A stretch of DNA of 64,000 nucleotides from Raillietiella orientalis. Lineage: Eukaryota. Below are positions 3,001-54,213 of this stretch, in pieces. The stretch is from the NCBI GenBank assembly GCA_036172245.1, contig JAYWIR010000053.1:62001-126000 (forward strand), in the 5' to 3' direction. The position numbers and the translations under genes are program-made. The notes beneath the pieces are model-generated. The model was not told the origin of the DNA. It made no database searches and saw only the letters and a program-made list of their open reading frames with translations. The stretch's first letter is position 1. Every line of letters starts with the position of its first letter.

Positions 3001-3016
3001 ACGCGATTCCCCGCAT
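1..3016 (-). pseudogene. A0 ORF2 (APE endonuclease + RT), disrupted
   Basis: LLQEIH, NVYAP, AGDFN, LDH, SDH; GIRQGDSLSPLLF and YADD in ORF 162..1511; broken by stops and frameshift. Confidence 0.92.
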
Positions 3017-7236: not shown

Positions 7237-7326
7237 TTCTGCCCAGGAACAACCGCGCTGAAAAACCCACAAACACCAGCAAAAACAGACGGTTTTCCGG
7301 AGCACCGAAAAAACACGTCCACTCAC

Positions 7327-18020: not shown

Positions 18021-18246
18021 GGGATTTGGGGTTTACACCCGGGAACGCCCGGGGCGTTTATTGTATAAAGCTCTACAAGAAAACGTGGTACAAGGCCCCA
18101 CTAACGGCCACACAACACCGGACCTGCCGAGACGCCGGGACGCAGCCCAGCGTGACCCTCCTCGGCTGTGGAGGGGGATAGGGATCAAAACAAAATTGAA
18201 AATCAAAATAAAGCAAAACAAAAAGAGTTTGAGGGAGGGGGAGGGA

Positions 18247-21200: not shown

Positions 21201-21839
21201 AACTTTTCCCCGTTTGCCGACCCGCGAGCACAGGTCGACATCCAGGAAGAAGTGGTCGATGCTGCGGTATACTCCCTCCGCGTCTGCCAACAAGTTGCGC
21301 GTGCGCATGGCCGCGCACAACTCGTTGGCCGTGCGTTCTTGTGCTTCGGGCTCACCTGACAGCAAACGGAGATTGAAGTCTCCAGCTATCAGGTGTGCCT
21401 TTCCCGCATTCGTGTCGGCCAGCCAATCGCGCTTCAGGGTTTCCAGCAGCATGGTACGGTCGCTGTATCCCCCTTTTCCGCTCGGGGAGTACACGTTCGT
21501 GACGATCAATTCGATCGAGTCGGACCAGCTGAGAATCAGCTGACCGATCCGACCGTCGTCATCAAAGCGTACGCCCTTCACGGCAGCGTCGATGGCCGGC
21601 TTGACAAAGAACGCGACCCCGCAGGTGTTGCGGGCGCCGCATCGCCAATACACTCGACCCCCCGCGAGCGCCTCGATCTCCTGGACGTCTGCCGAGGTGA
21701 TCACGTGGATCTCCTGCAGCAGCGTTAAATCGAAGTCACGCAGGGTGTCGGCCGTATCTCGTTTGTTGCCGTCGTCGCGCAGCCCGTTGACGTTCCAACT
21801 AGCCACGCGGATTCGACGGCGACAGGCGAGCCCAGGTGT
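18247..21839 (-). pseudogene. B2 ORF2 (EN-RT-CCHC)
   Basis: WNVNGL, AGDFN, IDH, SDH; SIRQGDSLSPLLF, YADD; CARCGERDSLPHLL. Confidence 0.92.
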
Positions 21840-23591: not shown

Positions 23592-23691
23592 CGGACACCA
23601 ACGATGTGAAAAAGCACACACTGAACCCAAAAAACCGCTTTCCGCTGCTCGTTCGCGGAGCGCCGGAAAAACACGTCCGCTCTCGAGGAGA

Positions 23692-26290
23692 GGGATTTGG
23701 GGAGGGGCCGCGTAACGAAAGGTGCTATCTTCAGGCCCGACGTTACGCAAGAACCCCCGACATGCGCGGATTAGCAGAGTATCGAGAGATAGCCGAGAGG
23801 CAAGCCTGGCAATCCGGTTCGGCCAGCTTGTGGACGACCAGGGCCGAAACCACTCGGTTCCAGTTGAGAAACGCGGGATAGTGAGGAAATTTTACTCCTC
23901 CCTGTTCGCCAGGGCGCCTACGGAGCAGGCTGTCTCACGACTCCTGCTTCCGGAAGGTGCTCCAGCAATCGGGGAGGAGGAGAAAAGGAACCTCGACGAG
24001 CCTCTCACGATGGGCGAGATCATCAGCTCACCTTGTTGATCCGCGAAACAGGTGACGTTCCCACCTCGTTTCGTTCAACAAAGGTGAGGCTTTTCCCTAA
24101 GAAAGGAGACCTTGGGAGCATGAACAACTGGCGTCCCATCACAACAGTGAATGCGGACGCCAGGTTGCTAGCCAAGCTGTGGGCACAGCGCCTGGGACGG
24201 GTCGCCAACATCTTCATCAGCTCGGAGCAGACATATGCTGTTCCCGGGCGAAGTATGGAGGCGAACCTGTTCCACGCTTCCACATGGTTAGAGCTCCAAC
24301 AAAAAAGGAGCATAATAAGCAACCGGAATTCCGGTGCGTCCTTCGGTGGGGAAAGGGATGGTCGGGAGGGGAGAGGAGCCCTCGCGCTCGCAGTCGATTT
24401 GCATAAAGCATTCCATTGCGTCGTCCACAATCTCCTTTTGGAGCTTCTGGAACACTTGGGCTTCCCGGCCTCTTTGCAGGCCTACCTGCGCTCCAGCTGG
24501 CGCGACGCGCTTATTAATGTTCTTTTTAGTGGATCCACCGTGTACGGCGTAACGGTGCGACGCGGCATACGGCAGGGAGAAAGCCTCAGCCACTTGCTCT
24601 TCAGCGCCTATTTCGAATTGGTGCTGAGAGCATACAGGGAGACTCTGGCACACCTGCCGTGCGCTTGTCCCGGTACGCCTGCGGTTTCGGCGTACGCGGA
24701 CGACCTTCTGCTGCTGCTGCCTATGTCCACCCCGGCCTCGGCGGTCGAGGACTTCTTCGAACTGCTGAGTCGTGGAACAGGACTGACGGTGAACAGGGCG
24801 AAGTCGTCCGTAATGCCAGTCGGAGCGGCGTGGGCAGGGCAGCAGGAATGAGTCCGTTTGGGGATCCCCACGGTGAGGTACTTCAGGTACCTTGGTGTGC
24901 CGTTGGGGGACTACTCCCCTGCGGAAGCGTGGTCCCCCTGCCTTTAGAAGGCTCAGGCGGCGATCGGCCCGTTCCAGGACCGCAGGTTCTTCTTGCATGA
25001 ACGGGCCGCGGCGTGGAACGCGTTTGCGTCCCCCCTCCTTCGCCCCTTGCTTTTTGTTTGATCCACCTCAGCGGAGTCAAAGAATAGGACGAAGGACCTC
25101 CTGAGGATCGCCCTTTGGGGTAGAGGTAGGCCCCGTGTCCGTCTTTCGGACTTGTGCGCTCCTCGTCGGGATGGTGGTCTGGGCCTCCTGACGTTAGAGC
25201 GGCTGGAGATACAGCTCCAGTTCCGAGTTGTTGCCTTTATGCCAGAAAATGGGTGCACCCCTTGGTGCCTCCCTGCACGTCTCCTCGTCGATCGGGCCAC
25301 CGGCAATGCGGGACTCTCGTCCTACTTTGCACTCCAAAGCCCCATCTGCCACTGCGGACTTCAGATTCGAAGGGCGGCCAAGCTCGTGAAGACCAACTTG
25401 GAGCGGATCCTCGTACGCCCCGCGAACGGTCCTGCCTGGTTGCAGGAAACCGTCCGCACGTGGGCGATGACTCAGGAGCAGAGCCGCAACACGAGCGAAT
25501 AGCTCTGTTCGGTCCTCACGCCCACCGCACGTTCCGAGAAATCTTTGAGGATCCCCGAAGGAGAGCGTGGGCACAAAGAACCTCCCTTGCTGCGGTACTG
25601 CCTACCTTACGGGAACATCTGGGCAGCGACGTCGCGGCACAATGGGAGGTTACTGTCAAGATCGCCAGCAGGGCAAAGAAGATCGGGGATTGGAGAACGG
25701 GTCAGCTCACCAACGCTGCGACCCCGAGGACCACCCCAAATGGACTGTTGCGCTGGGGAGAGCTACTGGATGTTCCAGAGGAACATCTCGAGTGGCCCCC
25801 GGTGCTCATGGACTCGCACACCCTCCCCATGATGTGGCAACAGTCGGCACTGATGGTGTTGCATTGGGGGCTTCCTTGCAACGCCCGCCGACACCACTGG
25901 ACGCGGGGGGGTGTCAACCCTAATTGTGTCAGGTGCGGGGAGAGGGAATACCTCCCCCACCTGTTAGTGGATTGTGTTGCCCTCCATCCCTTGTTTGAAC
26001 GCTTTGCTGCAGCCCTGGGGATCCCCGGAGGAAACCCAAGAGCCGATTTGCGCCCCCTCTTCGTCCGTGACGCCCTGCCTCCAGCGGCCGCGCTTGCAGC
26101 CCTGTGCTGTCTACGCGGGATCGTCGTGGCATGGAGCAAAGCGACAGGAGGATCCAGCGACAGGGATGCCAACGTGTATGCCGTCCGTTTCCTCAGGATG
26201 GCGACGCGATGGCCCCATCTGGAACTACACACGCAGCAACAGCTTGCCGGCATCCTCCAGAGGATGACGGACCCTCCGAGCAGACTGTGA
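23692..26290 (+). pseudogene. C1 ORF2 resumed (linker, RT, CCHC)
   Basis: GFGEGPRNERCYLQARRY continues from PAGFG; YADD; CVRCGEREYLPHLLVDC; stop at 26290. Confidence 0.9.
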
Positions 26291-29272: not shown

Positions 29273-29364
29273 TGGACACCGCAGATGCTCCACACACAAA
29301 CAATAACGAAAAAGAACGCTTTACAACAGGCGCAGAGGAGCGCGGAAAAAACACGTCCGCACTC

Positions 29365-31708: not shown

Positions 31709-33250
31709 TCGGAAGATTGACGTCGGTTAGAGAGGACGTGTTTCCTTGGTGCTCCTAGTGGCGGGAACCGTCCCTAGGTGTAGGCTCCGTGTGTGGTGGT
31801 GATCGCAGAGGCAGCAATGCCTGACAAGACCACCAGTGCGTGTAAGGGGGCTGTTACAACGTCGCTTTCTGAGGAAATGGAGTCCCAGGTGGAAGCGGCA
31901 ACGTCGCCTCTAGGAAAGTTGGAGTGCCAGGGGGAGGCGGCAACGTCGCTCTCAGTGGCGAAGGAACTGGGGGCGTTCGCCCCCAGAAAAGCGATCCCCA
32001 CTGCAACGCGGTTGTGGAGCGCCGTCGTGTCGGCGCCATCGCCTGCAGCCGCTGCGGAATTATCTGCCTATGTAGAAGAGGGGTATAACCCATCACTATT
32101 CTACAAGGTAGGAAATTTGTATTCTTCTGAGAGTGCGCGCACTTTTTCGGAGGGGATGCGCGCTCTCGATGTTAATGTGGAGTAGCTCTGCGCTATGATT
32201 TTCCGTAGCGGGCGGCAGTACGTAGATTTGATCTGCAAAGACGCAGATCAGGCCAAACGTCTGCTCAAAACCCCCGTGGTGATGGGAACACGCAGACTCC
32301 TGCCCATTACGGCGGACCATAGTATGGTGGTGCACCTTTTAGGAGTTACCGCCCGGATGCGGAAAGAACAGTTACGCGCCGCGTTGGGAAAAGAAGGCAC
32401 GGTCCATGCAGTATGGACCAAGCCTAGTACTTTCGAGGACTATACCAGAGTTTAGTGCGGCCTCACGGCTGCCCGTGTAACCGTTTGGGAAAGCTCTACC
32501 CTTCCCCACAAACTGGTGGTCGGCGCAGAAATCGTCGACCTCTGGTACGTGGGGAGGCCCAAATACTGTGGCTTCTGCAACACGTCATACACCTAAAAAT
32601 GAGGTACCCCAAGGTACAGTGCCAGATATGCGGGACAATGAGCCACACAATAGGAAGTGTGTCCACAATCCGCTGTGCACGTGGTTTTCTCGAGGAACCT
32701 AAAAAATCTCGCGCGAGTGCTGCAGAGAAGCCCGGCGGCGAAGGCTGCCGCTCAAGCTGTGCCACCCACACCCGTGGTCCAGGCCGCAGCCGACTCCCCG
32801 ACAACGAATGTTGGAAAGATCGAAAAAAGCGGTCAGGTGTTGGAATGGCAAGAAGGGATAGCGAAAAAAAAAAAGTCGAAGAAAGAACGAGGAATTGAAA
32901 AAAAGCTCGCGTACCAAAACAAAAGAAAGCAGGATAGTGAGAATTTAAAAGAATGCAGCGTCGTCGTGGAACGCGTTCCCGCCGAACGCCGCAAGGTAGA
33001 AATCGCTGCTACCGACGAGCAACCCACTGTTGAAAATGTCAACAGCGTGATGAGCGAACCGGCGGAAGCGTCCGTCATTAAGACCGTGATCGATGACGCC
33101 GCCTTCGAGCGTGCGGCGCAGGAGCTGGCTGCATCGTTGCAGCCAGACCCCTTCACGGCCAGTTGGAGGACGTGTTTTAACTTCACTCCTCAAGAGTAGT
33201 AGGAAAGCGCTTTCTTGTGTGTGGTGTTTTGTGTACATCATCGGTGTCCA

Positions 33251-35001
33251 ATGGCCAAGACGCCAGAGGAAACCGCGATGGAGGTGGGAGTGGGGGAGGC
33301 TAGTTCGCCCCCACAGCCTACTGCAGCAGAAGCAGCCGCCCCGGAATCATCCACGGCCACGCCGAGGACATGGAGCGCTAGGTGGCCGCGCCCAGCGCAG
33401 AAGCCATGGCGGAGATGGCCGCATACAAGGCCTCCGGGTACAAGCCATCGCTTGTCTACCAGGTAGGCAACTTGTTCGACGGCCGGACAGCGCGCGCCTT
33501 CAGCAAAGCGTTGAAGGACGCGAATGTTACCGAGAAGGATCTGGACGGCCTCTCCGTCATCAGCGGCGGGCAGCGGGTCGATGTGGTCTGCAAAGATGTC
33601 ACCTTGGCTCACCGCCTAATCCATGCGCCGCTGAACGTAGACGGCCGCAAGATCCTGCCAGTATCTATGGACCGCTCCGTGGTGGTCCACATGACTGGCA
33701 TCACCAGCCGCATGACGCGGTCAGCGGTTGGTGAGGAATTAAGAAAGTACGGTGAGGTGCACGCACTGTGGCCGAAACCCTCCATTTTCGACGGCTTCGA
33801 TAGCCTTTTTGGTGGGCAGGCTGCAGCGCGGGTCACCGTAAGGGAGAATTGTGGGCTTCCCCACAAACTACAGGTGGCGCAAGAAAACGTCGACCTGTTG
33901 TATGAAGGGAAGCCACGGTATTGCGGGCATTCTGATACCGTGGGACACCTACGTAAAAGGTGTCCCAATATACAATGCCATTTGTGCGGGGAGCGGGGCC
34001 ACGTTCGGCGCGTGTGTCCCAAACGCCCCACTCCGGTTCCCCCTTCCGCGAAAAAAGCGCAGGGGAAACGTGCTTCCAAGGTCTCTAGACCTAAAGTAGA
34101 AAAGGGCCAGCACGAGCTGCCAACACTTCAACCTCCGGCGCGTAAGGCGGAGGATAAACCTTCTGAAACGGTGGAAGGCGAAGAGGGATGGCAGCTTGTA
34201 GAGGCCAGAAAGCCGAGCAAACTCCCACCCGCGGAGAGCAAAGAGCTCAAGACGGCCGGTAAGCCGAAAAAACTCGGTCCGCGCTCGAAAACTCTGCGCG
34301 AGTGCACGGTGGCACTGGAACGAATCGTCGTTCCCGAGATTGCCACCCGGAGCTTCGAACCTCCCCTTGCCGTTTCGGCTGCGCCCGAGGCTCGCGACGG
34401 CGAACCCTCTGTTTACACAGAGGGAGAGCCGCGCGACATAGCGGCGGTCGAAGCCGCAGACGCCGCGTTCGCGCAGGCGGCGGAGGAGCTCGCGGTCACG
34501 CTGGCCGAGCGTGAGAATTCCTCGCGCAAGGCCGTGCGAAGGCCGGCTCCGGCGAAGAAGGCCCCCACAGGTGAGATAGACCTGGGCGCCAGAAGCACAT
34601 CCTCCTCCTCGGAGGCACGCCCCAGGAAGTCGTGACGCAAGTCCAAGAAGCCCAGGAGGCGCCTCCCCTCCACCAGCGAGGAGGAGAAGACGGAAGCCGT
34701 CGCCAGCGTGCGAAATTCGGAGGAGGAATTCCCACGCTCGGAAGCCGTCGATCCGGCCACCCCCATGGAGGAAGGTGAACAGGGGGGTGAAGTCCCCTCT
34801 GCAGGCGCCGACCCTGAACAGCCCGCCCCCATGGAGGAGGGCGAACAGGTAGGCGCGACTCCACCTGCGGGTGATCCGGCGGACGCGCCGGCACCGATGG
34901 AGGAGGGGGACCAGGTGCCTTTAGCACATGACCCCCATCCTCCAGCTAGCGTTTCGCCCCACCAGGTGGCGGACGCCGCACTGCCATCCTCCCAGGGGTA
35001 A
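33251..35001 (+). pseudogene. H ORF1
   Basis: GYKPSLVYQVG; CHLCGERGHVRRVC; PMEEG x3; internal stops. Confidence 0.87.
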
Positions 35002-35468
35002 CACCTGCGCTCGCCAGTCGCCGTCGGATTCGCGCGGCCTGTTGGAATTTCAACGGGCTGCGCGACGACCGTAACAGGCGAGATACAGCCGACACCCTGC
35101 GGGAGTTCGACCTGGCCCTGCTGCAGGAGATCCACGTGATCACAGCGGCAGACGTCCAGGAGATCGAGACGATTGCGGGGTGTCGGCTGTACTGGCAATT
35201 CGGCATCAGCAACACCTGCGGGGTCGCGTTCTTGGTGAAGCCGGCCATCGACGCTGCCGTGAAGGGAGTGCGCTTCGATGACGACGGTCGGGTCTTTCAG
35301 CTGACTCTCGGCTTGTCCGACTCGATCGATCTGATCGTCACGAATGTGTACGCCCCAACCGGTCAAAAGGGATACAGCAACCGTACCAGGCTGCTTGAAT
35401 CCCTGAAGCGCGACTGGCTGGCGAACACGAGCGTGCGGAAGGCTCAGCTGATAGCGGGAGATTTCAAA

Positions 35469-35492
35469 CGAGTGCGGACGTGTTTTTCTTCG
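35469..35492 (+). promoter_or_regulatory. Conserved 5'-terminal motif GGACGTGTTT (putative internal promoter/initiator), representative copy
   Basis: Within ~15 bp of the 5' junction of 11 elements from five families; function is inferred. Confidence 0.55.
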
Positions 35493-35547
35493 CTCTCGTC
35501 TCCGTGCTTTCATCCGCTTCACCTTGGCGTCGTACATTTTGACGACG

Positions 35548-37470
35548 ATGTCGACCCAACTTGAAGCTACTAAAGTTGGAGGAACAGCATCCGGATCTGC
35601 AATTGCGGAACCGACGGCCGCCTCCACTTCATCTTTCTCGCCAATGGAGAGGAGTTTTGCTTACGTTGCTACCACAGCAGCCGTCAAAGGGAAACCACTC
35701 GACGAGTCGGAGTTGCGAACATACGTAGCCCAAGGCTATAGACCTGCTCTCCGACATAAGGTGAGTGGCTTTCTTTCTGCGCGCGACGGAAATCAGTTCA
35801 ACGATGAACTGACCCGTGTTGGCGTGCGGGAGGAGGACCTTCTCGCCATTATGCCCGTAAAAGACATGGGCTATTTCAAGGTGCGTTGCAAAGACGCTGC
35901 ACTTGTGCAACGCTTGCTGCGCACCCCGTTGTCGATCCGTGGCCAGAAGGTCTTCCCGGCCGCCATGGACGACTCATTTGTGGCGGAGATGTTCGACAGC
36001 GAGTCGGAAATCTCCGATATTGATATTCGGAACGCGTTGGCGAAATTCGCCACGGTCCATGCGCTGTGGAGGATGCGTAGCAACCTCAAGGACTACCCGT
36101 CCATACATAGCGGAGTCGCTGGAGTCCGGCTTACAATGCCGGACCGCCGTCTGCTACCCAACAAACTACAGGTGAAAGACACGGTCGTTTACCTGTGGTT
36201 CGTGGGCAAAGTAAGAACGTGCGAGCAATGCGGGAAGGAGGGGCATTGTTTAGATAAATGCCCCTCTGGAAAATGCCGTTATTGGAAACTATCCGGGCAG
36301 CAATTGAAAAATTAACCGGATCTTTTGCGAAAAAAGACAGCCGCAAAGCTGCATCTTAAAAAACAAAGCGCGGATAAAAAGAAAAAATCTGCGAAAAACC
36401 TGGAGACCCCACGGCAAAAATTCCTAAAAATAGCGAGGTGGAATGTCGCCCCAAAGCAGCAGGAAACCTCGCACGCGAAGCCATGCGCGCCCCCTCTCAC
36501 GGCAGGAAAGCCGCAAAAAAAAGGCTGCGGGGAATCCGGGGCAATAATAAGTCCCCCTAGGCGCAATAGCTGTCCTTCCCAAGCACGCCCGGCTCCGTCG
36601 GAGTTCGAGCAACCGGCGGGGACGTCAAAGGACAACGGCGGTAAGGACACTTCCAGTACCGTCAGATCCATTCCTTCACCTCCTGCAGTGGCTGAGAAGC
36701 CCAAATCGGGTAAGAAGAATTGTGCCCTGTCGACTTCGAAAGTCGGCAAAAAAAAATACGCGTCGCGATCCAACACCGCGAAAGCGGAGAAAAATCTCAC
36801 GCCGTCGCAATCGGAGAGCAAGCTCTCGACTGGCGCCGATGCCATGCCAACGAAAAGATTAAAAACCCTTCCGAAGGCAGCGTCCATGACGAGCGTGTCG
36901 AAGCCATCCAAAGTGCTCCCGTCCAAATACGCGGATGGATTCAAAGATGGCAATGGAGCACAATCTCCATTTTCGGCGCCACGCGAAGTGAGGAACCGTA
37001 AGGAAGTAAAAAAGGCTTCAGCAAAGGTCCCTCGTGCAACTGCGCGTGAGCACGCTGAAAACGCACGCGCCGGGAAAGCAGCCGGCACCAAAAGCGATGC
37101 TCTGGTGACGGAAAACGAAAACAGGACAGCTGTCAATCCAGCAGAACCTGTCACTGCTTCGCGAAAGGCCGAAACCCGATCGAGCATGCGCCGTTCGGAC
37201 TCCGAAATGGATGCCGTTCCGATCACCGAGACGAGCACAACTCGTTCAAAAGCGTGTGCGCGCCGATCAAAAGTAGGCAGCCAGGCAACGCTCGCCGCGA
37301 AGCTACGCAAAGTCTCCACGAAACCCGACGGGGTTGAGCCTGGCGTGGAGGCATTTCACGCATGCAGCACGACAGAAGACGGTGGTGACCGTCCCCTCCA
37401 AACAGTCGTGCTGCTCGCCGTCTGCTCGCCGGATAAAGCGAGCAAAAAGCTGCCACCTTCCCAGCAGTAA
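35548..37470 (+). pseudogene. A1 ORF1
   Basis: MSTQLEAT...CEQCGKEGHCLDKC; single in-frame stop at 36313-36315; TAATG at 37468-37472. Confidence 0.9.
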
Positions 37471-40400
37471 TGCGGGGAATCGCGTCTTCTCGTCGTCTGT
37501 CGGTAACGTGTTGGAACGAGAACGGACTGCAGAACGACGAGAAGAGGCGATTAGTAGCCAACGCACTGCGCCCCTCCGACCTCGCGCTGCTGCAGGAGAT
37601 TCACGTAATCTCCGACGAGCAGGCAGCCGAAATCGAGGAGCGCGCAGGCGGAACGCTACATTGGTGGTGCGGCGGCGAACACACGTGCGGCGTCGCGTTC
37701 CTCGTAAGAGGAAAAATGGCGGAAGCGGTGCGTAGTGTTCGTTTCGATGACCACGGACAGATAGGCCAGCTTGTCATCAAGTGGTCCGAGTCCATCGATC
37801 TCGTCGTAACGAACGTCTACGCGCCGAGTGGCTCTCGCTACCTCGAAGAAAGAGTAGCTTTCTTTGGTGAGGTGCAGAACCACTGGCTCAACAACTCCGG
37901 CTTCAAAGTGGCGCCCCTCGTCGCTGGGGACTTCAACGTCCGCCTGCTCTCCGACGATTGGAGCCACCGAGGGAGCGCGCGCTGCCCATCGAGATGTGCG
38001 CGTCCGTGCACGCCGCCAACTTGATGGTCAGCGAACCTGGAATGGAAAGATCGCTCGATCACGTTTTCCTCGATGAAGACCTGCATTCGCGTGTGGGCAG
38101 GAGAGGAAGATTGTTGACTGAGCTTTCTGACCACCACAGGTTGGAGTTTGAGATCCTTCCGCCAGGCAGGGGGCCTCCGTTGCAAAGCTGGAGGATGCAG
38201 GCGGATTAGCTTAGCCAACTGGAGGCTGCGTAGCATCTACGTGGATACCTCCGAGGCTTTGCCATTCAAGAACTTGCGGACTGGGACGATCTCAAAATAT
38301 CTGTCCGCGAGTTCTGTTGCCAATTCCCCTTTTACCGGCTTCCACGCGGTTTCGGAGAAAGCGTGGCCAACAGTAGAGACTTACTGCAGGCCCGCACGTT
38401 TTCGAGACGCGCCGATGTCGGGCGTATCGCAGAGAACAAGGCGAGGGCCGAGCGCCACGTCTGGCAGTCCGGAGCAGCATGCCTGTTGGACGACAAGGGC
38501 CAGGAATGTTCGGCCCCAGCCGAATTACGCCGCATTGTGAGACGCTACTACTCCTCGCTCTACGTGGAATTCCCGACGGAGGATATTCTTTCTGAGATAC
38601 TCCTGTCTCAGGATGCTCGTGTTGTCGGCGAGGAGGAACGCGAACGTCTCGACGAGCCCTTCACGGCGGATGAATTTTCGTCCGCCATCGCTGGGCTGAA
38701 GAGGCGCAAGGCGTCACGCGAGGATGGGCTCCCTGCAGAGTTTTATCAGTGCTTTGCAGTGGAGCTCATTCCCTTGATGCTGAAACTCGCGACGCTGATG
38801 ACTGAATCCGGGAATGTCCCTGATTCCTTCCGCTCAGCGAAGGTGCGTCTCCTGCCGAAAGGTGGAGACTTGCGCCAACTTGACAACTGGCGTCCGATCA
38901 CCTTGGTGAACTTGGACGTCAAGTTGTTTTTTAAGCTGTGGGTAGCGCGGTTAAGAAGAATCGCGGAATCTGTGGTGAGCCCGGAACAAACCTACGCGGT
39001 TCCGGGACGAGCCATGGAGGCGAACATCCTTTTCGCGCGTACATGGATGCAGCTGCAGGAAGTTGTGGCGCAGCAAAGCCAGGCTGCTGCGAAAGTCACT
39101 GCCGCAGGGAAAAAGAACAGGCGCCGACGGCAGGAGGGAACGCCAGGTGCCTTGGCGGTTGCGGTCGATCTCCACAAGGCGTTCGACTGCGTAAACCAGA
39201 AGCTGCTTTTGGAGCTTATGGAACGCCTTGGGTTCCCGGCGTAACTCCTGCTGTATTTGCGCGCGTGCTGGCGCCACGCGCTAACCTGCATTACTTTCAG
39301 CGGCTGCCGCGTGTATGGTATTCCCGTTCGTAGTGGCATCCGACAGGGCGACAGCTTAAGCCCGTAGCTCTTCAGCATCTTCTTTGAGTTGGAGCTAAGA
39401 GCATACAGGCTGACGCTGACTCACTTGCCAAGCTCCTGCCCAGGAACGCCTGTCGTGGCCGCCTACGCTGATGACCTGCTTCTTCTGCTCCCCATGTCCA
39501 CCCCGGCGTCCAGTGTCGAGGATTTCTTCGACCTGATTCGTCGGGGAGCGGGCGTGAGCGTGAACAGAGAGAAGAGCGGAGTCGTTCCTGTGGGTACGTC
39601 GAGGGAGGGGCAGTCCGACTGGATCCACCTGGGGATCCTCACGGGCGGGTACTTTAAGTACATTGGCGTTCCGTTGGGCGCTTTCGGCGCAGCCGAAGCT
39701 TGGGCGTACTGTTTTCAGAAAGCAGAGTTGGCCATCAGCCCGTTCTTTAACGGCAAGTTTACCTTGCAGGAACGGGCGACTATTTGGAACACCTTTGTGG
39801 CCCCCCTCCTCCGTCCCCTGTTTTTAGTTTTGGACCCCCCCTATGCGGCAAAACAACGGGCTAAGCGCCTGCTCAGGAACGCTCTCTGGGGTCCGGCGAG
39901 ATCCAGGATCCGCCTTAAAGACTTGTCAGCTCCGCGTTGGGATGCTGGTTTGGGTATCCTGACAATGGAGCGAATCGGACTGCAGGTGCAGTTCCGACTG
40001 CTTGCACTGTGTGAGCAGCTATGGACATCCCCCCTGTGTGTGCCAGCTCGCATTCTCCTGCGGAAATGCGCCGGCAGCGGAGGATTTCTCTCGCTTTTGC
40101 CGGGCACTCAATACAGCATGCGGGGTTTCGGGTTTCCATTGCTGCTGTTGACCGCACTTCTGAAAGCACACTCTTGGATCTCCTGCCGCCCAATGAACTT
40201 TGACGCTTGGCGGCAGGTATCTGTTGAATCCAGGGCGGCGTTCCAAGGAATACACCCTGAAGATCTTCTTCCCCTGCGCCAATTTTTTCCACGATCCTTG
40301 GAAGAATTACTGCATGACGAGGTGAAGTTTTCTACCCTGGCTGCAACGCCTGTTGCCGCAGCGCTGTCTGCCCTCAGGGCAAGAAACGACAGTTACCAAC

Positions 40401-41062
40401 CGGCGAGGTGGGAGGTTTCCTGCACGATAGCGGGAAGAACCAAACTCCTTGGCACCTGGAAGACAAGTGAGTTGGCGGACGCCGCCACTCCTCGTGTTAC
40501 TGCAAAGGGACTACTCCGGTGGGCAGAAGAACTTTCTGTTACCCCCGAAGAACTTGTAGTCCCTCCACAGTGTATTGACAGTTCGCTGCTCCCCCTAGCT
40601 TGGAAACAAGCCGTGCTGCTTTTCGTTCACTGGGGTTTTCAGTGCAACGAGCGTTGGCATCGTGACTCCGGGGGACTTCCGTCTGCGAACTGCGTTCGGT
40701 GCGTTTCGACGGAGTCGATTCCGCACCTACTTCTGGACTGCGGTGTCCTACAAGGACTGTGGCGTAGGCTGGCAACAGCACTAATGCATCCCGTGGACAC
40801 CGCAAGAGACTTGCTGCGACAATTCTTCACGCCGAGCGGGCTGTCACTAAGCGCAAGGATGGCAACCATTGGTTGCATACGCGCGATAGTTTCCGTCCGC
40901 CAGGCGTTGGTAATCAACGGACAGCACCAAGAGGTAATCAGCAAAGCAACCTTCTACATAAGAGCATATGCTAAATGGCCTCATTTGACAGAGGAGACAA
41001 AGAGGAATCTCGCCGCAATACTCCGCCGGTTTACACACCCTCATCAGCGGCCAACCCGGTGA
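37470..41062 (+). pseudogene. A1 ORF2 (EN-RT-CCHC, ~1200 codons), disrupted
   Basis: AGDFN, LDH, SDH; NWRPIT; YADD; CVRCVSTESIPHLLLDC. Confidence 0.93.
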
Positions 41063-41345
41063 TCATTGCACTACCCTCCATAAACTAAATTTGTATTTTC
41101 TTTTTACATCCGCGTCCCCATAGGCTCCGGAACATTTTAGGTGCTCATCGTATAAATCCCCGTGAGTACGGAGCCTAACCAAAAACCCGTTACCCTTCCC
41201 TCCAGTTTTTGATTTTTGTTTGTTTCCCCTCATTCCTCCCGCGCTGCGAGCGGTTTGTTTACCAGGCCTGAGTGCCGGTGATTTTAATATGTTCTCTGTC
41301 GTTCTGTTGGTTGGTGACATTGTCCCTGACCAGTTTATTATTATT

Positions 41346-41375
41346 AATAAACGCCCCGGCGTGACCGGGTGATAA
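41346..41375 (+). terminator. Conserved 3'-terminal AATAAA + CCCGG-N5-CCGGG hairpin, representative copy
   Basis: Related ~30-nt end on 10 elements; function is inferred. Confidence 0.6.
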
Positions 41376-41462
41376 ATTTCAATCGAGTGCGGACGTGTTT
41401 TTCTTCGCTCTCGTCTCCGTGCTTTCATCCGCTTCATCTTGGCGTCGTACATTTTGACGACG

Positions 41463-43374
41463 ATGTCGACCCAACTTGAAGCTACTCAAGTTGGAGGAAC
41501 AGCATCCGGATCTGCAATCGCGGTACCTACGGCCGCCTTCACTTCGTCTTTGTCGCCAATGGAGAGGAGTTTTGCTGACGTTGCTGCCACAGCAGCCGTC
41601 AAAGGGAAACCACTCGACGAGTCGGAGTTGCGGGCATCCGTAGCTTAAGGCTATAGACCTGCTCTCCGATATAAGGTGAGTGGTTTTCTTTCTGCGCGCG
41701 ACGGGAATCAGTTCAACGATGAACTGACCCGTGTTGGCGTGCGGGAGGAGGACCATCTCGCCATTATGATCGTAAAAGACATGGGCTATTTCAAGGTGCG
41801 TTGCAAAGACGCTGCACTTGTTCAACGCTTGCTGCGCACCCCGTTGTCGATCCGTGGCCAGAAGGTCTTCCCGGCCGCCATGGACTACTCATTTGTGGCG
41901 GAGATTGTCGACATCGAGTCGGAAATCTCCGATATTGATATTCGGAACGCGTTGGCGGAATTCGCCACGGTCCATGCGCTGTGGAGTGTGCGTAGCAACC
42001 TCAAGGACTTCCCGTCCATACACAGCGGAGTCGCTGGAGTCCGGCTTACAATGCCGGACCGCCGTCTGCTGCCCACGAAACTACAGGTGAAAGACACGTT
42101 CGTTTACCTGTGGTTCGTGGGCAAAGTAAGAACGTGCGAGCAATGCGGGAAGGAGGGGCATTGTTTGGATAAATGCCCCTCTGGAAAATGCCGTTATTGG
42201 AAACTATCCGGGCACCAATTGAAAAATTGCCCGGATCTTTTGCGAAAACAGGCAGCCGCGGAGCTCCATCTTAAAAAACAAAGCGCGGATAAAAAGAAAA
42301 AATCTCCGAAAAACCTGGAGACCCCACGGCAGAAATTCCGAAAAAACGCGAGGCGGAATTTCGCACGAAAGCAGCATGAAACCTCGCACGCGAAGCCCTG
42401 CCCGCCCCCTCTCGCGGCAGGGGAGCCGCAAAAGAAAGGGTGCGGGGAATCCGGGGCAATGGTAAGTCCCCCTAAGCGCAATAGCTGTCCTTCCCAAGCA
42501 CGCCCGGCTCTTTCAGAGTTCGAGCAACCGGAGGGGACGACAATGGACAACGGCGGTAAGGACACTTCCAGTACCGTCAGATCCATTCCTTCACCTCCTG
42601 CAGTGGCTGAGAAGCCCAAATCGGGTAAGAAGGGTTGTGCCGTGTCGACTTCGACAGTGGGCAAAAAAAAATCCGCGTCGCGATCCAACACCGCGAAAGC
42701 GGAGAAAAATCTCACGCCGTCGCAGTCGGAGAGCAAGCTCTCGTCTAACGCGGATGCCATGCCAACGAAGGGATTAAAAGCTCTTCCGAAGGCAGCGTCC
42801 ATGACGAGCGTGTGGAAGCCATCGAAAGTGCTCCCGTTTAAAGACGCGAATGGCTTCAAAGATGTCAATGGAGCACAATCTTTATTTACGGCGCCACGCG
42901 AAGTGAGGAACCGTAATGAAGTAAAGAAGACTTCAGCAAGGGTCCCTCGTGCAACTGCGCGTGAGCACGCTGAAAACTCGCGCGCCGGGAAAGCAGCCGT
43001 CAGCAAAAGCGATGCTCTGGTGACGGAAAACGAAAACAGGACAGCTGTCAATCCAGCAGAACCTGTCACTGCTTCGCGGAAGGCCGAAACCCGATCGAAT
43101 ATGCGCCGGTCGGACTCCGAAATGGATGCCGTTTTGATCACCGAGACGAGGACAACTCGTTCGAAAGCGTGTGCGCGCCGATCAAAAGTAGGCAGCCAGG
43201 CAACGCTAGCCGCGAAGCCACGCGAAGTCTCCACGAAACCCGGCGGAGTTAAGCCTGGCGTGGAGGCATTACGTGCATGCAGCACGACAGAGGACGGTGG
43301 CGACCGTCCCCTCCAGCCAGTCGTGCTGCTCGCCGTCTCCTCGCCGGATAAAGCTAGCAAAAAGCCGCTAGTAA
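41463..43374 (+). pseudogene. A2 ORF1
   Basis: Homologous to A1 ORF1; stop at 41646-41648; 11-bp deletion before TAATG. Confidence 0.88.
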
Positions 43375-46300
43375 TGCGGGGAATCGCGTCTTCTCCTCGT
43401 CTGTCCGTAATGTGTTATAACGTGAACGGACTACAGAACGACGAGAAGAGGCGATTAGTAGCCAACGCCCTGCGCCCCTTCGACCTCGCGCTCCTGCAGG
43501 AGATTCACGTAATCTCCGACGAGCAGGCAGCCGAAATCGAGGAGCGCACAGAGGGAACGCTACATTGACGGTCCGGCGGCGCACACACGTGCGGCGTCGC
43601 GTTCCTCGTAAGAGGAAAAATGGCGGAAGCGGTGCGTAGTGTTCGTTTCGATGACGACGGACGGATAGGCCAGCTTGTCATCAAGTGGTCCGAGTCCATC
43701 GATCTCTTTGTTACGAATGTCTACGCGCCGAGTGGCTCTCGCTACTTCGAAGAAAGAGTAGCTTTCTTTGGTGAGGTGCAGAGCGAGTGGCTCAACAACT
43801 CCGGCTTCCAAGTGGCGCACCTCGTCGCTGGGGACTTCAACGTCCGCCTGCTCTCCGACGATTGGAGCCGCCCGAAGCAGCGCGCGCTGCCCATTCAGAT
43901 GTGCGCGTCCGTGCACGCCGCCAACTTGATTGTCTGCGAAGCTGGAATGGAAACATCGCTCGATCACGTTTTTTTCGATGAAAAGCTGCATATGCGTGTG
44001 GGTAGGAGAGGAAGATTGTTGACTAGGCTTTCTGACCACTGCAGGTTGGGGTTTGAGATCCTTCCGCCAGGCAGGAAACCTCCGTTGCAAAACTGGAGGA
44101 TGCAGGCGGATTGGCTTAGCCACCCGGAGGCTGCGGAGCATCTACGTGGATACCTCCGATGCTTTGCCATTCAAGAACTTGCGGATTGGGACGATCTCAA
44201 CAGATCTGTCCGCGAGTTCTGCTGCCAATTTCCCTTGCATTGGCTTCCACGCAGTCTCGAAAAGGGCGTGGCAAACAGTAGAGACCTTCTGCAGGCCCGC
44301 ACGTTTTCGAGACGCGCGGATGTCGGGAGTCTCGCAGAGTACAAGGCGAGGGCCGAGGGCCAGGCATGGCAGTCCGGAGCAGCATGCCTGTTGGACGACA
44401 AGGGCCAGGAATGTTCGGCCCCAGCCGAAGTACGCCGCTTTGTGAGACGCAACTACTTCTCGCTCTACGCGGAATCCCCGACGGAGGATATTCTTTCTCA
44501 GATACTCCTGTCTCAGGATGCTGGTGTTCTCGGCGAGGAGGAACGCGAACGTCTCAACGAGATCTTCACGGCGGATGAATTTTCGTCCGCAATCGCTGGG
44601 CTGAAGAGACGAAAGGCGCCAGGCGAGGATGGGCTCCCTGCAGAGTTTTATCAGTGCTTTGCAGTGGACCTTATTCCCTTGATGCTGAAACTCTCGACGC
44701 TGATGAGTGAATCCGGGAATGTCCAGGATTCCTTTCGCTCAGCGAAGGTGCGTGTCCTGCCGAAAGGCGGAGACTTGCGTCAACTTAACAACTGGCGTCC
44801 GATCACCTTGGTGAACTCGGACGTCAAGTTGTTTTCCAAGCTGTGGGTAGCGCGGTTAGGAAGAATCGCGGAATCTGTGGTGAGCCCGGAACAAACCTCC
44901 GCGGTTCCGGGACGATCCATGGAGGCGAACATCCTTTTCGCGCGTACATGGATGCAGCTGCAGGAAGTTGTGGCGCAGCAAAGCCAGGCTGCTGCGAAAT
45001 TCACTGCCGCAGGCAAGAAGAACAGGCGCCGACGGCAGGAGGGAACGCCAGGTGCCTTGGCGGTCGCGGTCGATTTCCACAAGGCGTTCGACTGCGTAAA
45101 CCAGAAGCTGCTTTGGGAGCTTATGGAACGCCATGGGTTCCCGGCGCAACTCCTGCTGTATTTGCGCGCGTGCTGGCGCCACGCGCTAACTTGCATTACT
45201 TTCAGCGGCTGCCGCGTGTATGGTATTACCGTTCGTAGGGGCATCCGACAGGGCGACAGCTTAAGCCCGTTGCTCTTCAGCATCTTCTTTGAGTTGGTGC
45301 TAAGAGCATATAGGCTGACGCTGTCTCACTTGCCAAGCTCTTGCCCTGGAACGCTTGCCGTGGCCGCACACGCTGATGACCTGCTTCTTCGGCTCCCCAT
45401 GTCCACCCCGGCGTCCAGTGTCGAGGATTTCTTCGACCTGATTCGTCGGGGAGCGGGCGTGAGCGTGAACAGAGAGAAGAGCGGAGTCGTTCCTGTGGGT
45501 ACGTCGAGGGAGGGGCAGTCCGACTGGATCCGCATGGGGATCCCAACGGGCGGGTACTTTAAGTACCTTGGCGATCCGTTGGGCGCTTTCGGCGTAGCCG
45601 AAGCGTGGGCGGACTGTCTTCAGAAAGCAGAGTTGGCCATCAGCCCGTTCTTTAACGGCAAGTTTACCTTGCAGGAACGGGCGACTATTGGGAACATCTT
45701 TGTGGCCCTCCTCCTCCGTCCCCTGTTTTTTGTTTTGGACCCTACCTATGCGGCAAAACACCGGGCTAAACGCCTGCTCAGGAACGCTCTCTGGGGTTCG
45801 GCGAGATCCAGAATCCGCCTTAAAGATTTGTTAGCTCCGCGTCGGGATGCTGGTTTGGGTATCTTGACAATGGAGCGAATCGGACTGCAGGTGCAGTTCC
45901 GACTGCTGGCACTGTGTGCCCAGCTATGGACATCCCCTTTGTGTGTGCCAGCTTGCATTCTCCTGCGGAGATGCGCCGGCAGCAAAGGATTTCTCTCGCT
46001 TTTGCCGGGCACTCAATACAGGAAGCGGGGTTTCGGGTTTCCATTGCGGCAGTTGACCGCACTTCTGGAAGCACATTCGTGGATCTCCTGCCGCCCAATG
46101 AACTTTGAAGCTTGGCGGCAGGAGTCTGTTGAATCCTGAGCGGCGTTCCAAGGAATACGCCCTGAAGATCTTCGCCCCCTGCGCCACTTTTTTCCACGAT
46201 CCTTGGAAGAAGTACTGCAGGACGAGGTGAAGTTTTCTACCCTGGCTGCCACGCCTCTTGCCGCAGCGCTGTCTGCCCTCAGGGCAAGAAACGACAGTTA

Positions 46301-46965
46301 CCAACCGGCGAGGTGGGAGGTTTCCTGCACAATAGCGGGAAAAAACAAACCCCTTGGTGCCTGGAAGACGAGTGAGCTGGCGGACGCCTCCACTCCTCGT
46401 GTTACTGCAATGGGACTTCTCCGATGGGCAGAAGAACTTGCTTTCACCCCCGAAGAACTCGTAGTCCCTTCACAGTGTATTGAGAGTTCGCTGCTCTTCC
46501 TTGCCTGGAAACAAGCCGTGTTTCTTTTCGTTCACTGGGGTTTTCAGTGCAACGAGCGTTGGCATCGTGACACCGGGGGACTTGCGTCTGCGAACTGCGT
46601 TTAGTGCGGATCGACGGAGTCGATTCCGCACCTACTTCTGGACTGCGGTGTCCTACATGTACTGTAGCGTAGGCTAACAACAGCACTAATGCATCCCGTG
46701 GACACCGGAAGAGTCTTGCTGCGACGATTCTTCACGCCGAGCGGGCTGTCACTAAGCGCAAGGATGGCAACCATTGGTTACATACGCGCGATAGTTTCCG
46801 TCCGCCAGGCGTTGGTAATCAACGGACAGCACCAAGAGGTAATCAGCAAAGCATCCTTCTACATGGGAGCATTTGCTAGATGGCCTCATTTGACAGAGGA
46901 GACAAAAAGGAATCTCTGGAATACACCGCCGGTTTACACACGCTCAGCAGCGGCCAACCCGGTGA
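43374..46965 (+). pseudogene. A2 ORF2 (EN-RT-CCHC), disrupted
   Basis: 839-aa open segment 43620..46139; YADD mutated to HADD; stops at 43568, 46139 and 46604. Confidence 0.92.
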
Positions 46966-47278
46966 TCATTGCCCTACCCTCCATAAACTATTTTTGTATT
47001 TTCTTTTTACACCCGCGTCCCCATAGGCTCCGGAACATTTTAGGTGCTCTTCGTTTAAATACCCGTGAGTACGGAGCCTAACCAAAAACCCGTTACCCTT
47101 CCCTCTAGTTTTTGATTTTTGTTTGTTTCCCCTCATTCCTCCCACGTTGCGAGCGGTGTGTTTACCAGGCCTGCGTGCCGGTAATTTTTCTATGTTCTCG
47201 GTCGTTTTCTTGGTTGGGGACATTGTCTTTGACCAGTTTATTATTATTAATAAACACCCCGGCGTGACCGGGTGATAA

Positions 47279-50200
47279 ATTTCAATCTACGCCTTCAAAC
47301 AGGTGAGCCGGGAACACAAGTGAACGCGATGAACGAGTCGTGTACCGCCATGCGTGCGCGCAACTTGTTCGCGGGTGAGAGGGGAATGGTCCGCAGCATC
47401 GACCACGTCTTCCTCGATGCTGACCTGTGTTCACGGGTCGGCAAACGGGGGTGGGTTGCGTCAACGTTGTCGGACCATTCCCGGTTAATTTTCGAGATGC
47501 GGCCTCGCGACAAAGGACCGCGATCCAGGGACTGGCGTCTACCCGGAAACTCGACGAGACTCTCAGGTGCGAAGAAACACCTTCGCGAATACCTGAGAGG
47601 CGTCACGCTCCAGAATCTCCAGGGCTGTGACCTTTTTTAGGAATCGGTAAGGGAGTTCTGCGAGCAGTTCCCCCTGGACCGCCTGCCTTTCGGATTCGTC
47701 GAGGGTCCTCGCAACCATCGGGCCTATTAACAGGCCCGTTGGTACGAGCGAACCCCTAATGTCCGTCGCCTGTCCGAGTGCCGCGACGGGGCCGAACGCC
47801 AAGCCTAGCAATCCTGGTCGGCCAGCTTTCTGGAGGACCAGGGCCGGGAATGTTCCTCCCCGGCGTCGGTACGGCATCTTGTGCGGAGTTATTATTTCTC
47901 CTTTTACGCCCGGGCACCCCCGGAAAAGATGCCTAGCAACTCTTGCTTCCGGATGGTGCCGCGGCAATAGGGGAGGAGGAGTCGTTAAGCCTGGATGAGC
48001 CTCTTACCACCGGCGAAATTCTCGCCGGTATCAAAAGGCTCAAGAGGCGGAAAGCTCCAGGAAAAGACGGCTTGCCCGCGGAGTTCTCTCAGAGCTTCGC
48101 GGAAGAGCTGGCGCCCCTGCTGCTTCAGCTGACAAGGCTGATCCGAGACGAAGGCGATGTTCCCGCCTCGTTTCGGTCACCTAGAGTGAGGCTCCTTCCG
48201 AAAGGGGGAGATCTTAGGAATTTGAACAACTGTTGTCCGATCACGATTGTGAATACGGACGCCAAGTTGGTTGCCGGGCTATGGGCTTCGCGTCTGGGGC
48301 AGGTGGCAGAATCCATAATTAGCCCGGAGGAGACATATGCTGTTCCCGGGCGAACTATGGATGCCAACCTCTTCTTCGCGAGCACATGGATGCACGCGCA
48401 GAGGTGTCAATAGGAAGGGAAAGGAAAAATCGGCGACCCCACTTTGGGGCCGCCAGCAGGGCAGGGAATGGACCCTTAAGCGGGAATGGGGCCTTAGCGC
48501 TCGCAGTCGATCTCCATAAGGCGTTCCACTGTGTTGACCAGAAGCTTTTGTTTGAGCTCCCGGGTCGCATGGACTTCCCACCCTCCTTGATCAACTACCT
48601 GCGCTCTTGCTGGCGGAATGCAATTATCTCCATCTCTTTCAGTAGACAGAAGGTGTATGGCGTGCCGGTGAGGCGGGGCATCAGGCAGGGCGATAGCCTC
48701 AGCCCCCTGCTCTTCAGCACCTACTTTGAGTTGGTGCTGAGAGCCTACAGGGTGACTTTGGCTTCCTTGCCGAGCTCGTGTCCCGGCACGCCCGCCGTAG
48801 AAGCCTATGCCGACGACATTCTACTACTGTTACCTATGTCCACTCCGGCGAAGGCGGTCAGAGACTTCTTCGATCTGCTCAGCCGTGGGACCGGACTCCA
48901 GGTCAACAGGGCGAAGTCGTCGGTGGTGCCAGTAGGTGCCGCGTGGGCAGGGCAGCAGGACTGGGTCCGTCTGGGGATCCCCACGGCGAAATGCCTCAAG
49001 TACCTTGGTGTGCCGTAGGGTGACTACTCCTCTGCGGAAGCGTGGTCCAGCTGTCTTCAAAAAGTTGAGACGGCGATCGGCCCGTTCCTGGAAGGCAAGT
49101 TTCACTTGCCGGAACGGGCCGCGGTTTGGAACGCCTTCGCGGCCCCCATCCTCCGCCCCTTTCTTTTTGTTTGCCCCTCCCCAAAAGTAGTTAAAAAGAG
49201 GACGAAGGACCTCCTCCGCATCGCCCTTTGGGGCAAGGGGAGGCTCCGAGTCCCTCTGCAGGACTTGTGCGCTCCGCGTCGGGACGGCGGCCTTGGCGTC
49301 CTGACGCTGGAGCGCGTGGAGAAGCAGCTGCGGTGGCTAAACCCTCGCCATCGCAGCGAAAATGTGGAGCACCCCTTTGTGCGTTTCGGCCCGCCACCTC
49401 GCCAGGGGTGTGTCCTGATGCGAAGGACTCGCGTCGTTTCTTCTGTGCCCTGGCCGGAAGATCCGAAGATGCGGTCTTATGCTCGGACGCATAGCAATCT
49501 TGGCGAAGACGAACGGTTGGATGGTTTGTGGCCCCGTCAACTCCTCCGCCTGGTTAGAGGAGTCTGCTGGCACATGGGCTAAGCTGAACCGGAGGAGTGA
49601 AAACCACATGAACTGCCTGCGCATCGGCCCATACGCCAACCGCACCCTGCGGGAAATACTGGAATTTCCTCGAAGTCGCAGGTGGGCGTTGACAACCCCC
49701 CTTGCTACGGCGATGCCCTACCTCCTGAGAGCGCCTCAGGATCGCCGGAAGCCGAGGTGGCAAGTCACCTGCCAGATCGCAGGCAGGGAGAAGAAGTTAA
49801 GCGGCTGGACCACAGGAGAACTGGCGGACGCCACGACCCCGAGCGTCCAGCCGCGTGGATTAATGAGATGGGGCGAGCTGCTCGCCATCCCTACGGATGT
49901 GCTTAAGTGGCCCCCGGTACTAAAGGAATCCAGGATCCTGCCCTTTAAATGGCAAGAGTCGGCGTTGCTACAGCTGCACTGGGGTTTACCCCGCAACGCA
50001 CGCCGCTTCCACTGGACAAGGGGAACTGTGGATCCTGAGTGTGTCAGGTGCGGAGAGCGAGAATCGTTCTCCCACCTTATTGTGGACTGTGCTGCCATCT
50101 GACCCCTCTGGAAACGGTTCGGGGCGACCCTAGGGCTCCCTACGGGCAGCAACCCCAGAGAAGTTCTTCAGCCCCTCTTCGTGAAGGACGCACTGCAGCC

Positions 50201-50414
50201 AGCCGCAGCCATCCTTGCCTTGTGCTGTGTCCGTAGCATCGTGGCGGCATGGAGCGACGCCAATAACGAAGGAGTGGGTCCACACGCGAGGGATGTCATC
50301 CCATACGCCCAACGCTTCATGCGGAGAGCTACCGGATTGCCCCAACTGGCGAATATACGGACGGACCTCGAGGGCTTCCTTCAACGGATGTGCCCTCCTC
50401 ACAGCGCTCAGTGA
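47279..50414 (+). pseudogene. H ORF2 resumed (EN C-terminal half, RT, CCHC)
   Basis: FNLRL, IDH, SDH; GIRQGDSLSPLLF, YADD; CVRCGERESFSHLIVDC. Confidence 0.9.
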
Positions 50415-51162
50415 TCCCTTCCCTGCCCTCCAACTTCTTTTTGTCTGTTTATTTTTTTATTTTTCTTTTTGTTTTATCCCCATCCCCCTTCGCTGCTGAG
50501 GAACGCTACGCTGGGCTGCGTCCCGGCAGGTCCAGTGCATATGGCCGTGAGCAAGGCCTTGTACCGCGGATGTAGAGTTTTTTAAAAATAAATGCCCTGG
50601 GCGTACCCGGGTGTAAACCTCCAAGGCTGGCAAGAAGGCCGTAAGGCGTCCGGCCTCCCCTCAGGAGTCCTTCACTTCCCACCCCGAGGTGGAGGCCGGA
50701 AGCGCAGCCTCCGTTTCCACGGCACCGCGCAAGAAGGCTAAACGTAAGTCCACAAAGACAAGGAAGCTCGTCTCCCCCGTCGAAGGGGAAGAGATGGCTT
50801 CCGCAAGCGAGGGTTCCATGAGCGTGGGAAACTCTCGGGATCCGTCGCCCGAGAGACTCCCACGCGCGGACACGGAGGGGATGGAGGGGGTGGAGGCCGA
50901 ACAGGTGCCTCAGGTGCCTGAGAAGGCCGAAACCCCCATGGTCATCCCGCCCGCCTCGCAAGAGGAGGGCTCCCCAAACCTTAATCTTCCCAGCAGTAAT
51001 GCCGGGAATCTCCTCCCGCCGTCGTCTGCGCATCGCCGTTTGGAACGTGAACGGCATGACAGACGCCGGCAGGAGACGAGACATGGCCGCCCTTCTGGAG
51101 TCCTACGACCTTGCGCTGCTGTAGGAGATCCACGTGATCTCTGCAGAACAAGCGCAAGAGAT

Positions 51163-54100: not shown

Positions 54101-54213
54101 GGCGCTCGGTCTTGGCCTTGTACTCGGAAAATCGACCAAGGTCCGACCGCCTGGAAAATGAGCGGGCCTGCAGAAAAACTCTACTGTTGGCTGCGCCCTC
54201 TCCGAAGCCGCTT
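51163..54213 (-). mobile_element. LINE family F (A-related) 3' half: linker, RT, CCHC, 3' UTR
   Basis: GFGEGAANSRVFLQARSF; GIRRGDSLSPLLF, YGDD; CLRCGEIESFPHLLLDC; AATAAA-hairpin at 51163-51192. Confidence 0.88.

Follow-up and report, generated by a model that had tools for sequence, protein, structure and literature searches.

The stretch of DNA analysed here (the window: 64,000 nucleotides of Raillietiella orientalis contig JAYWIR010000053.1, assembly GCA_036172245.1, with positions counted from its first letter) has a G+C content of 53–63% and is densely packed with retroelements. Using tblastn with the open reading frame (ORF) of one element family, here called family A, together with self-BLAST, we found about 12 related elements nested within the 64 kb. 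The tblastn search located segments encoding an N-terminal domain, an endonuclease (EN) and a reverse transcriptase (RT) across the window on both strands, and self-BLAST sorts the elements into families. Within this nest, family A is inserted in the sense orientation at GATTTCAAT in the EN genes of other families, and the insertion, whose 5′ junction is exact to the nucleotide, splits the catalytic motif of the host element.

The window holds exactly three copies of family A, as judged by BLAST with copy A2 as the query, and the 5′ end is complete in all three. A0 (1..5015, minus strand) begins at 5015 and loses its 3′ part at the start of the window; it is 93.6% identical to positions 1-5008 of A2. 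A1 (35469..41375, plus strand) is full-length, with an ATG at 35548 and an ORF broken by frameshifts. A2 (41384..47278, plus strand) is also full-length, at 5895 bp, and has neither long terminal repeats (LTRs) nor terminal inverted repeats (TIRs). A1 and A2 lie head to tail inside one host element, H, identified by tblastn. The left part of H (33161..35468, plus strand) consists of the 5′ end, the N-terminal domain and the EN as far as G-D-F-(K), and the right part (47279..50623, plus strand) consists of the remaining EN, the RT, the 3′ untranslated region (UTR) and a 3′ hairpin ending in ...gggtgtaaa. A0 lies in a second host, K1 (5016..7327, minus strand), for which tblastn likewise located the 5′ end, the N-terminal domain and the EN as far as the D-F-N codons; the remainder of K1 lies beyond A0, outside the window.

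All three copies of family A start at the same nucleotide, directly after GATTTCAA(T/A), which represents the D-F-N codons of the H and K1 EN genes. At the left junction of H, ...GCGGGAG is followed by ATTTCAAA (35461..35468, plus strand; one mismatch to the other junctions) and then by cgagtgcgg, the start of A1. Between the two copies, ...gggtgataa is followed by ATTTCAAT (41376..41383, plus strand) and cgagtgcgg of A2, and on the 3′ side of the array ...gggtgataa is followed by ATTTCAAT again (47279..47286, plus strand) and ctacgcc, which continues in frame into H (N-L-R-L). Both A1 and A2 end in GGGTGATAA, and ATTTCAAT follows each of them. In K1, read on the minus strand, GCGAGC precedes GATTTCAAT (5016..5024), the D-F-N codons of the K1 EN, and these abut cgagtgcgg of A0. 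In translation, H gives ...LIAGDF(K) upstream of the array and (DF)N-LRL... downstream of it; the corresponding K1 protein is ...HLIASDFN. The junction letters and positions reported by the first-pass annotation, with A1 and A2 head to tail in H and A0 in K1, are correct. So is its statement that the insertions share a register across host families, since the H and K1 9-mers occupy one homologous column in a nucleotide alignment of the EN copies.

In total, the 8-mer is found at 3/3 5′ junctions and 2/2 3′ junctions of family A in the window. On both strands of the 64 kb, ATTTCAAT has three matches, every one of which abuts an A terminus. The count alone is unremarkable and within chance, as shuffled sequence gave a mean of 1.05 and reached three or more in 10/100 shuffles; it is the adjacency to A ends that is the signal. 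The 8-mer is also not a part of both of the element's own termini, as its 5′ copy is host-derived because the host reading frame needs it. One further sequence resembling the motif, GGTGATTTTAAT (AGDFN-like) in the A1 3′ UTR at 41277, is absent from A2 and was taken as chance.

The two hosts are considerably more diverged than the elements inserted into them. Flanks of K1 and H are 60.3-65.7% identical over 100-461 nt, whereas identity among the A copies is 95.2-95.7% in their first 461 nt and 93.3-93.9% over the whole length. With flanks at 60–66% and inserts at 93–96%, the junctions cannot readily have been inherited as a composite, so that on this comparison the insertions in K1 and H are independent events. 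Furthermore, three-way site patterns among the A copies are star-like, with 135 private changes in A0, 158 in A1 and 161 in A2. A1 and A2 are as distant from one another as either is from A0, and hence stem not from a duplication after insertion but from two integrations or two RNA templates. For the same reason, the suggestion of the first-pass annotation that an 8-bp target-site duplication (TSD) was used twice in H is plausible.

Family A itself has the features of a long interspersed nuclear element (LINE). A2 carries a single ORF (41463..46604, plus strand; in-frame stops at 41646, 43566 and 46137, n=3) that encodes an N-terminal domain resembling nucleic-acid-binding domains and carrying a CCHC knuckle, an EN of the apurinic/apyrimidinic endonuclease (APE) type and an RT. 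Like its siblings, family A encodes all three domains, the ORF1-like N-terminal one with its CCHC knuckle included, in one continuous frame (41463-46604 in A2) rather than in two ORFs. In a Pfam search, the A ORF matched RVT_1 at 68.6 bits (cut-off 29.6) and Exo_endo_phos with E=3e-4, at a score of 21.1 bits that falls short of the curated cut-off (24.5); the N-terminal 639 aa and the C-terminal 154 aa gave no Pfam match. The GDFN and SDHC motifs of A are, however, aligned by ExoIII-family PDB chains with E ~1e-3. A search of A2 and its flanks for LTRs and TIRs returned only chance repeats of 14-23 nt. The RVT_1 match, the aligned EN motifs and the lack of LTRs and TIRs together indicate that family A is, on sequence grounds, an APE-type LINE of about 5.9 kb with a single ORF. 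The alignment with the GDFN of ExoIII and APE also agrees with the earlier designation of GDFN as an APE active-site motif, as does the requirement for D145 and N147 in L1, where D145A/N147A abolishes retrotransposition according to the available part of PMC1950540. The protein searches recovered no further copies of A: the best relative, a metagenome match, is 55% identical and the others 22-30%, although many of these distant relatives carry RVT_1, Exo_endo_phos and zf-RVT. An Atlas search with A gave generic EN-RT clusters only.

We compared the 11 EN copies in the window that have a readable site, eight of them non-A and three of family A. The two copies with the 8-mer, H and K1, are both occupied, while none of the nine without it (six non-A and three A) is. 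In the EN-copy alignment, the empty non-A sites read GACTTTAAT (at 55298 and 26847), GACTTCAAT (21380), GAGTTCAAC (~15025), TATTTCAAC (~59067) and GACTTCAAA (~9423). Differences among the sites fall mostly at synonymous third positions, and from the codon usage of these ORFs about 7% of D-F-N triplets would be expected to read GATTTCAAT. The D-F-N codons of A2 itself are spelled GACTTCAAC (43833..43841, plus strand), which differs from the target at two positions, and the same spelling is found in A1 (37929-37937, plus strand) and A0 (2558-2550, minus strand); all three sites are unoccupied. This spelling is consistent with self-avoidance.

These comparisons bear on a proposal of the first-pass annotation, namely that by aiming at a motif that its victim can hardly change at the protein level, family A has acquired a durable target across families. 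The cross-family part holds, in that insertion is precise and in the same register in two hosts that are 60-66% identical. The durability, in the terms proposed, is not supported: the 9-mer contains three synonymous third positions, and the target is therefore not hard to change; indeed, 6/8 non-A EN copies spell it otherwise and are empty. The protein motif is constrained, but the nucleotide target is not constrained likewise.

Sequence from outside the window adds further junctions. In public run X1, in which 27% of sampled words were present, we compared contigs over 34800-47800; these contigs break within about 31 nt of repeat junctions. At least two of them run from the 3′ end of A through ATTTCAAT into CTCCGCCTGCTATCAG..., which encodes the L-R-L-L-S of a non-H EN gene, and L-R-L-L-S is what directly follows D-F-N in EN genes. 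In these same contigs the flank, read after ATTTCAAT+C as TCCGCCTGCTATCAGTTGATCC..., is absent from the window. It is about 68% like the right flank of H (letter count by eye), so it appears to come from an EN gene of another host, the second or the third. At least one other contig brings 35460 and 47279 together, the two sides overlapping by 7 nt, which is what an empty H-type site should look like; its shorter side is only 21 nt, however, and it is weak evidence for such a site. At least one X1 contig matches the window's own B junction. In run X2 no contig covered 34800-47800, and run X3 gave only four short pieces of low likeness over this interval.

Target-specific LINEs can be recognised, according to the available text of PMC4494074, by one sequence type in more than 20% of their flanks. 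By that rule family A is target-specific, albeit in a tiny sample: the target stands at 3/3 5′ junctions, at 2/2 3′ junctions and in at least two X1 contigs. We consider the sequence specificity of family A to be real, with strong support from a small sample.

The ends of the elements provide clues to how integration could proceed. At the 5′ end, all families share the motif (C/G)GAG(T/A)G(C/G)-GGACGTGTTTTT(C/T), with 11 matches against 1.76 expected. Its GGACGTGTTTTT(C/T) part lies a few bases from the 5′ end in all full-length elements of the different families, at 4996-5008, 7308-7320 (the K1 copy), 12843-12855, 17995-18007 and 23666-23678, and further positions are 29346-29358, 33168-33180, 35476-35488 and 41391-41403. 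The motif may serve as an internal promoter common to the families or as a signal by which the 5′ end is recognised. At the 3′ end, A2 terminates in AATAAAC, the hairpin CCCCGGCGTGACCGGG and TGATAA (47249..47278, plus strand), and A1 does so identically at 41346-41375. All families end in AATAAAC, a G+C hairpin and TGAnAA, an arrangement conserved in nine ends, none of which has a poly(A) tail; 3′ ends with the hairpin also occur at 51163-51192 (minus strand), 26477-26506 and 50584-50623 and on the F-type elements described below. Across the nine ends, 0/7 pairs of the hairpin show a compensatory change. The conservation of these ends suggests that the RT recognises the stem-loop.

From these features, a mechanism for family A can be proposed. 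The first nick, made by its EN, would fall on the antisense strand at the left-hand boundary of the 8-mer (5′-ATTGAAAT^C), and the freed 3′ end would prime reverse transcription of the A RNA, which ends in the conserved stem-loop and TGATAA. A second nick on the sense strand, 8 nt downstream (AAT^C), would produce the 8-bp duplication. As each insertion would leave two copies of the 8-mer, a further insertion could build a head-to-tail array such as A1-A2. The pay-off would be a target that is multicopy, self-renewing and harmless to the cell. A sibling element in the window, B/X#2 (12835-26506), is flanked by an ordinary 14-bp TSD, GCGAGATTGCGGAG, at 12821-12834 and 26507-26520, and staggered nicking is therefore normal in this group. 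B/X#2 splits a minus-strand G/F-type element (29365->26521 and 12820->9835), and the nest is thus at least three levels deep. We put the probability that family A is an autonomous, sequence-specific non-LTR LINE that integrates at the D-F-N codons of sibling LINEs, with nicks and a TSD as outlined, at roughly 0.75.

A parallel arrangement is found inside B/X#2, where two F-type elements form a head-to-tail array in antisense orientation (15437..23702, minus strand). The 11-mer GGGATTTGGGG occurs three times here, flanking the array on either side and separating its two members (15437, 18021 and 23692). One member is full-length (~23691->18021) and the other is an internally deleted copy (~18020->15437), and the 11-mer contributes one set of G-F-G codons, and only one, to B/X#2 between its EN and RT. 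Differently structured F-type inserts occupy the same site in two other B/X copies, at 9835-9845 and 58645-58655. We considered these cases as independent proof of targeting and rejected them as such, as flank identity (81-89%) is about the same as insert identity (81-88%), and independence rests only on the differing structures of the inserts. In the B/X copy at 58655, the far-side host spells S-G-F-G with other codons, beside a 28-nt palindromic filler. This palindrome (54201-54228) is perfect, reads TCCGAAGCCGCTT AA AAGCGGCTTCGGA on the minus strand, and stands at the 5′ junction of a 5′-truncated F copy; it looks like a fold-back repair scar.

The F-type elements are relevant to the most serious alternative, which accepts the same specificity but holds that the 8-mer is not a TSD. 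Instead, AUUUCAAU could form the 3′ end of the A RNA, either because the RNA has such a tail or because transcription reads through into a downstream copy. Pairing of this end with the nicked site, a scheme put forward for co-transcribed R1/R2-type elements, would let homology guide integration, and the nicks would be staggered little, if at all. In favour of this reading, H has ATTTCAAA as its copy on the host side, whereas both copies on the 3′ side of an element are ATTTCAAT. Similarly, in the minus-strand B/X copy the 11-mer beside the F 3′ end is GGGATTTGCGG, while the far-side host encodes S-G-F-G as AGCGGCTTCGGAG, and the 11-mer of F also follows the F 3′ end at 18021, where the flank is quite different. 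Co-transcription as a means of strengthening target-specific integration is mentioned in the available text of PMC4494074. However, a single T/A difference can be a later mutation, given that each A copy has diverged by about 3%; at 54201-54228 the F 5′ junction consists of palindromic filler, so that this site has been rearranged; and the sibling element B/X#2 makes a normal TSD. We regard an RNA-borne 8-mer as possible, if somewhat less likely than duplication by staggered nicks.

A1 and A2 could also be the product of a single event, in which the RT, on reaching the 5′ end of one A RNA, switched to the 3′ end of a second one and so formed a dimer. The equal distances of A1 and A2 from each other and from A0 are compatible with two RNA templates used at once, and the F family shows the same dimeric form. 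However, a jump would place an 8-mer between the copies only if the RNA carried one, and for SINEU-3 the available part of PMC4494074 documents successive insertions into a site that is formed anew each time, so we consider two successive integrations the better account and a template jump unlikely.

Alternatively, one ancestral A insertion could have been copied together with its host, either through a segmental duplication or because host and A were retrotransposed as one composite, in which case the shared junction would simply be inherited. A single blastn high-scoring segment pair does span A0+K1 versus A1+H (1-5443 versus 40486-35040, 91.9%), but when the segments are measured apart the divergence lies in the flanks, whereas composite copying predicts flanks and inserts that are equally diverged, as is the case for F in B/X. 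We therefore judge it very improbable. Finally, random landing in an element graveyard, with the shared register due to coincidence or retention bias, could draw on the dense nest of about 12 related elements and on the insertion of B/X#2 at an unrelated site with a 14-bp TSD, but is scarcely credible given that, in ~6-kb elements, all three 5′ junctions fall on one nucleotide position with one orientation, and that every ATTTCAAT in the window is at an A end.

Several observations weigh against integration of family A as proposed. The sample comprises only three copies from a single 64-kb window and a handful of short contigs, and all three copies are degenerate, with stops or frameshifts. 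Differences in host family confound the contrast between occupied and empty sites. In H, the 8-mer on the host side reads AAA where both others read AAT, which fits an element-borne 8-mer as well as a later mutation. Among the X1 contigs, the flank assigned above to another host may be the unseen right half of K1, which would leave two hosts and not three. In at least one contig, an antisense H-like EN is joined at 35190 to 32 nt of an A- or B-like 3′ end; this 35190/41375 junction, of the A or B family, is non-canonical, being neither ATTTCAAT nor the site of B.

Target-specific LINEs are known for ribosomal RNA, small nuclear RNA and microsatellite targets, and a few are known for DNA transposons. 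R1 and R2 resemble family A in their strict site specificity for a conserved multicopy sequence, and the R1Bm EN has been shown, in the part of the literature available to us, to be highly specific; their target, however, is the host ribosomal RNA gene rather than the catalytic-motif codons of rival retrotransposons, and the R2 EN is restriction-like. A close counterpart by description is Tx1L of Xenopus laevis, which like A is an APE-type LINE with a sequence-specific EN and a target inside a multicopy transposable element (available parts of PMC4494074, PMC1950540 and PMC6719617), but its target is the non-autonomous DNA transposon Tx1D and not the coding sequence of a sibling LINE.

The crocodilian SINEU-3, which inserts into Mariner-N4_AMi and is treated together with crocodilian Tx1 LINEs in the available text of PMC4494074, has a fixed TSD within another transposon, which is comparable to the 8-mer of A as a candidate TSD. 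The same text describes tandem SINEU-3 copies 'sandwiching a TSD' that are attributed to sequential insertion, an architecture like that of A1-8mer-A2. SINEU-3 differs in that its 16-bp site is in a DNA transposon, and in that its specificity was demonstrated with 347 copies (90% flanked), compared with three copies of A. Zepp and ZeppL, L1 elements of green algae, form nested clusters by insertion into existing copies (PMC8226300 and PMC3446292, as far as available), and the window is likewise a LINE nest built by insertion into existing copies (about 12 elements in 64 kb). However, Zepp and ZeppL arrays consist mostly of 3′ ends left by 5′ truncation (available text of PMC8226300), unlike the A copies with 3/3 complete 5′ ends, and no nucleotide-level target is given in the available portions of either paper, whereas A hits one defined 8-9-mer in other families. 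Searching open-access papers and preprints, we found no description of a LINE aimed at the EN motif of another LINE. Family A is a variant of known target-specific LINEs, distinguished by its target, the catalytic-motif coding sequence of competing LINEs.

Each insertion of family A would combine a safe, self-renewing harbour with the knockout of a rival's EN. This is a testable example of an arms race of parasite on parasite, in which D-F-N codons are predicted to escape through synonymous changes and A to be immune to itself, and it offers a concrete, putative nucleotide-level mechanism for the growth of nested LINE clusters. It also points to a further natural APE-type EN with a putative specificity of about 8-9 bp. 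More speculatively, the elements could form a guild of sibling LINEs, several of which are specialised on different short coding sequences of the others, with reciprocal hyperparasitism that builds nests, synonymous escape and self-immunity of A. It is conceivable, though doubtful, that within such a guild A would target the D-F-N codons of EN in sense orientation via an 8-mer, and F the G-F-G codons of B/X in antisense orientation via an 11-mer. As a similarly tentative extension, each family would regenerate its own site and build head-to-tail arrays. If such a guild exists, nested LINE clusters, Zepp-like and possibly centromeric, would be created and maintained by hyperparasitism, synonymous escape would be driven at the targeted motifs, and the GACTTCAAC spelling in A would represent self-immunity.

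Searches for the A 3′ end and 3′ junction in other collections yielded chance matches at most. Among metagenome contigs, a 22-mer from the 3′ end (degenerate for A and B) had one match, in L001, which is unrelated beyond 27 nt. A 19-mer from the 3′ junction had six bacterial matches among prokaryote-genome contigs; blastn alignments extended over at most 20-25 nt in two of these, and tblastn with the A2 ORF gave none. A scan of viral contigs gave 0 matches.

Two other features of the nest were noted. A B-type 3′ end (...GGTGAGAA) at 51163 (minus strand) abuts ATCTCTTGCGC, which is the antisense EN of another element (codons ...ISAEQAQE) and not the site of A. Targeting of a single site by B-type elements was considered and rejected, as this B copy is located at an antisense EN while B/X#2 is located at an unrelated site with a 14-bp TSD. 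Lastly, an RT-bearing ORF at 61729-63873 (minus strand) is only about 26% identical to that of A; it lies at the margin of the nest and probably represents another retroelement lineage.

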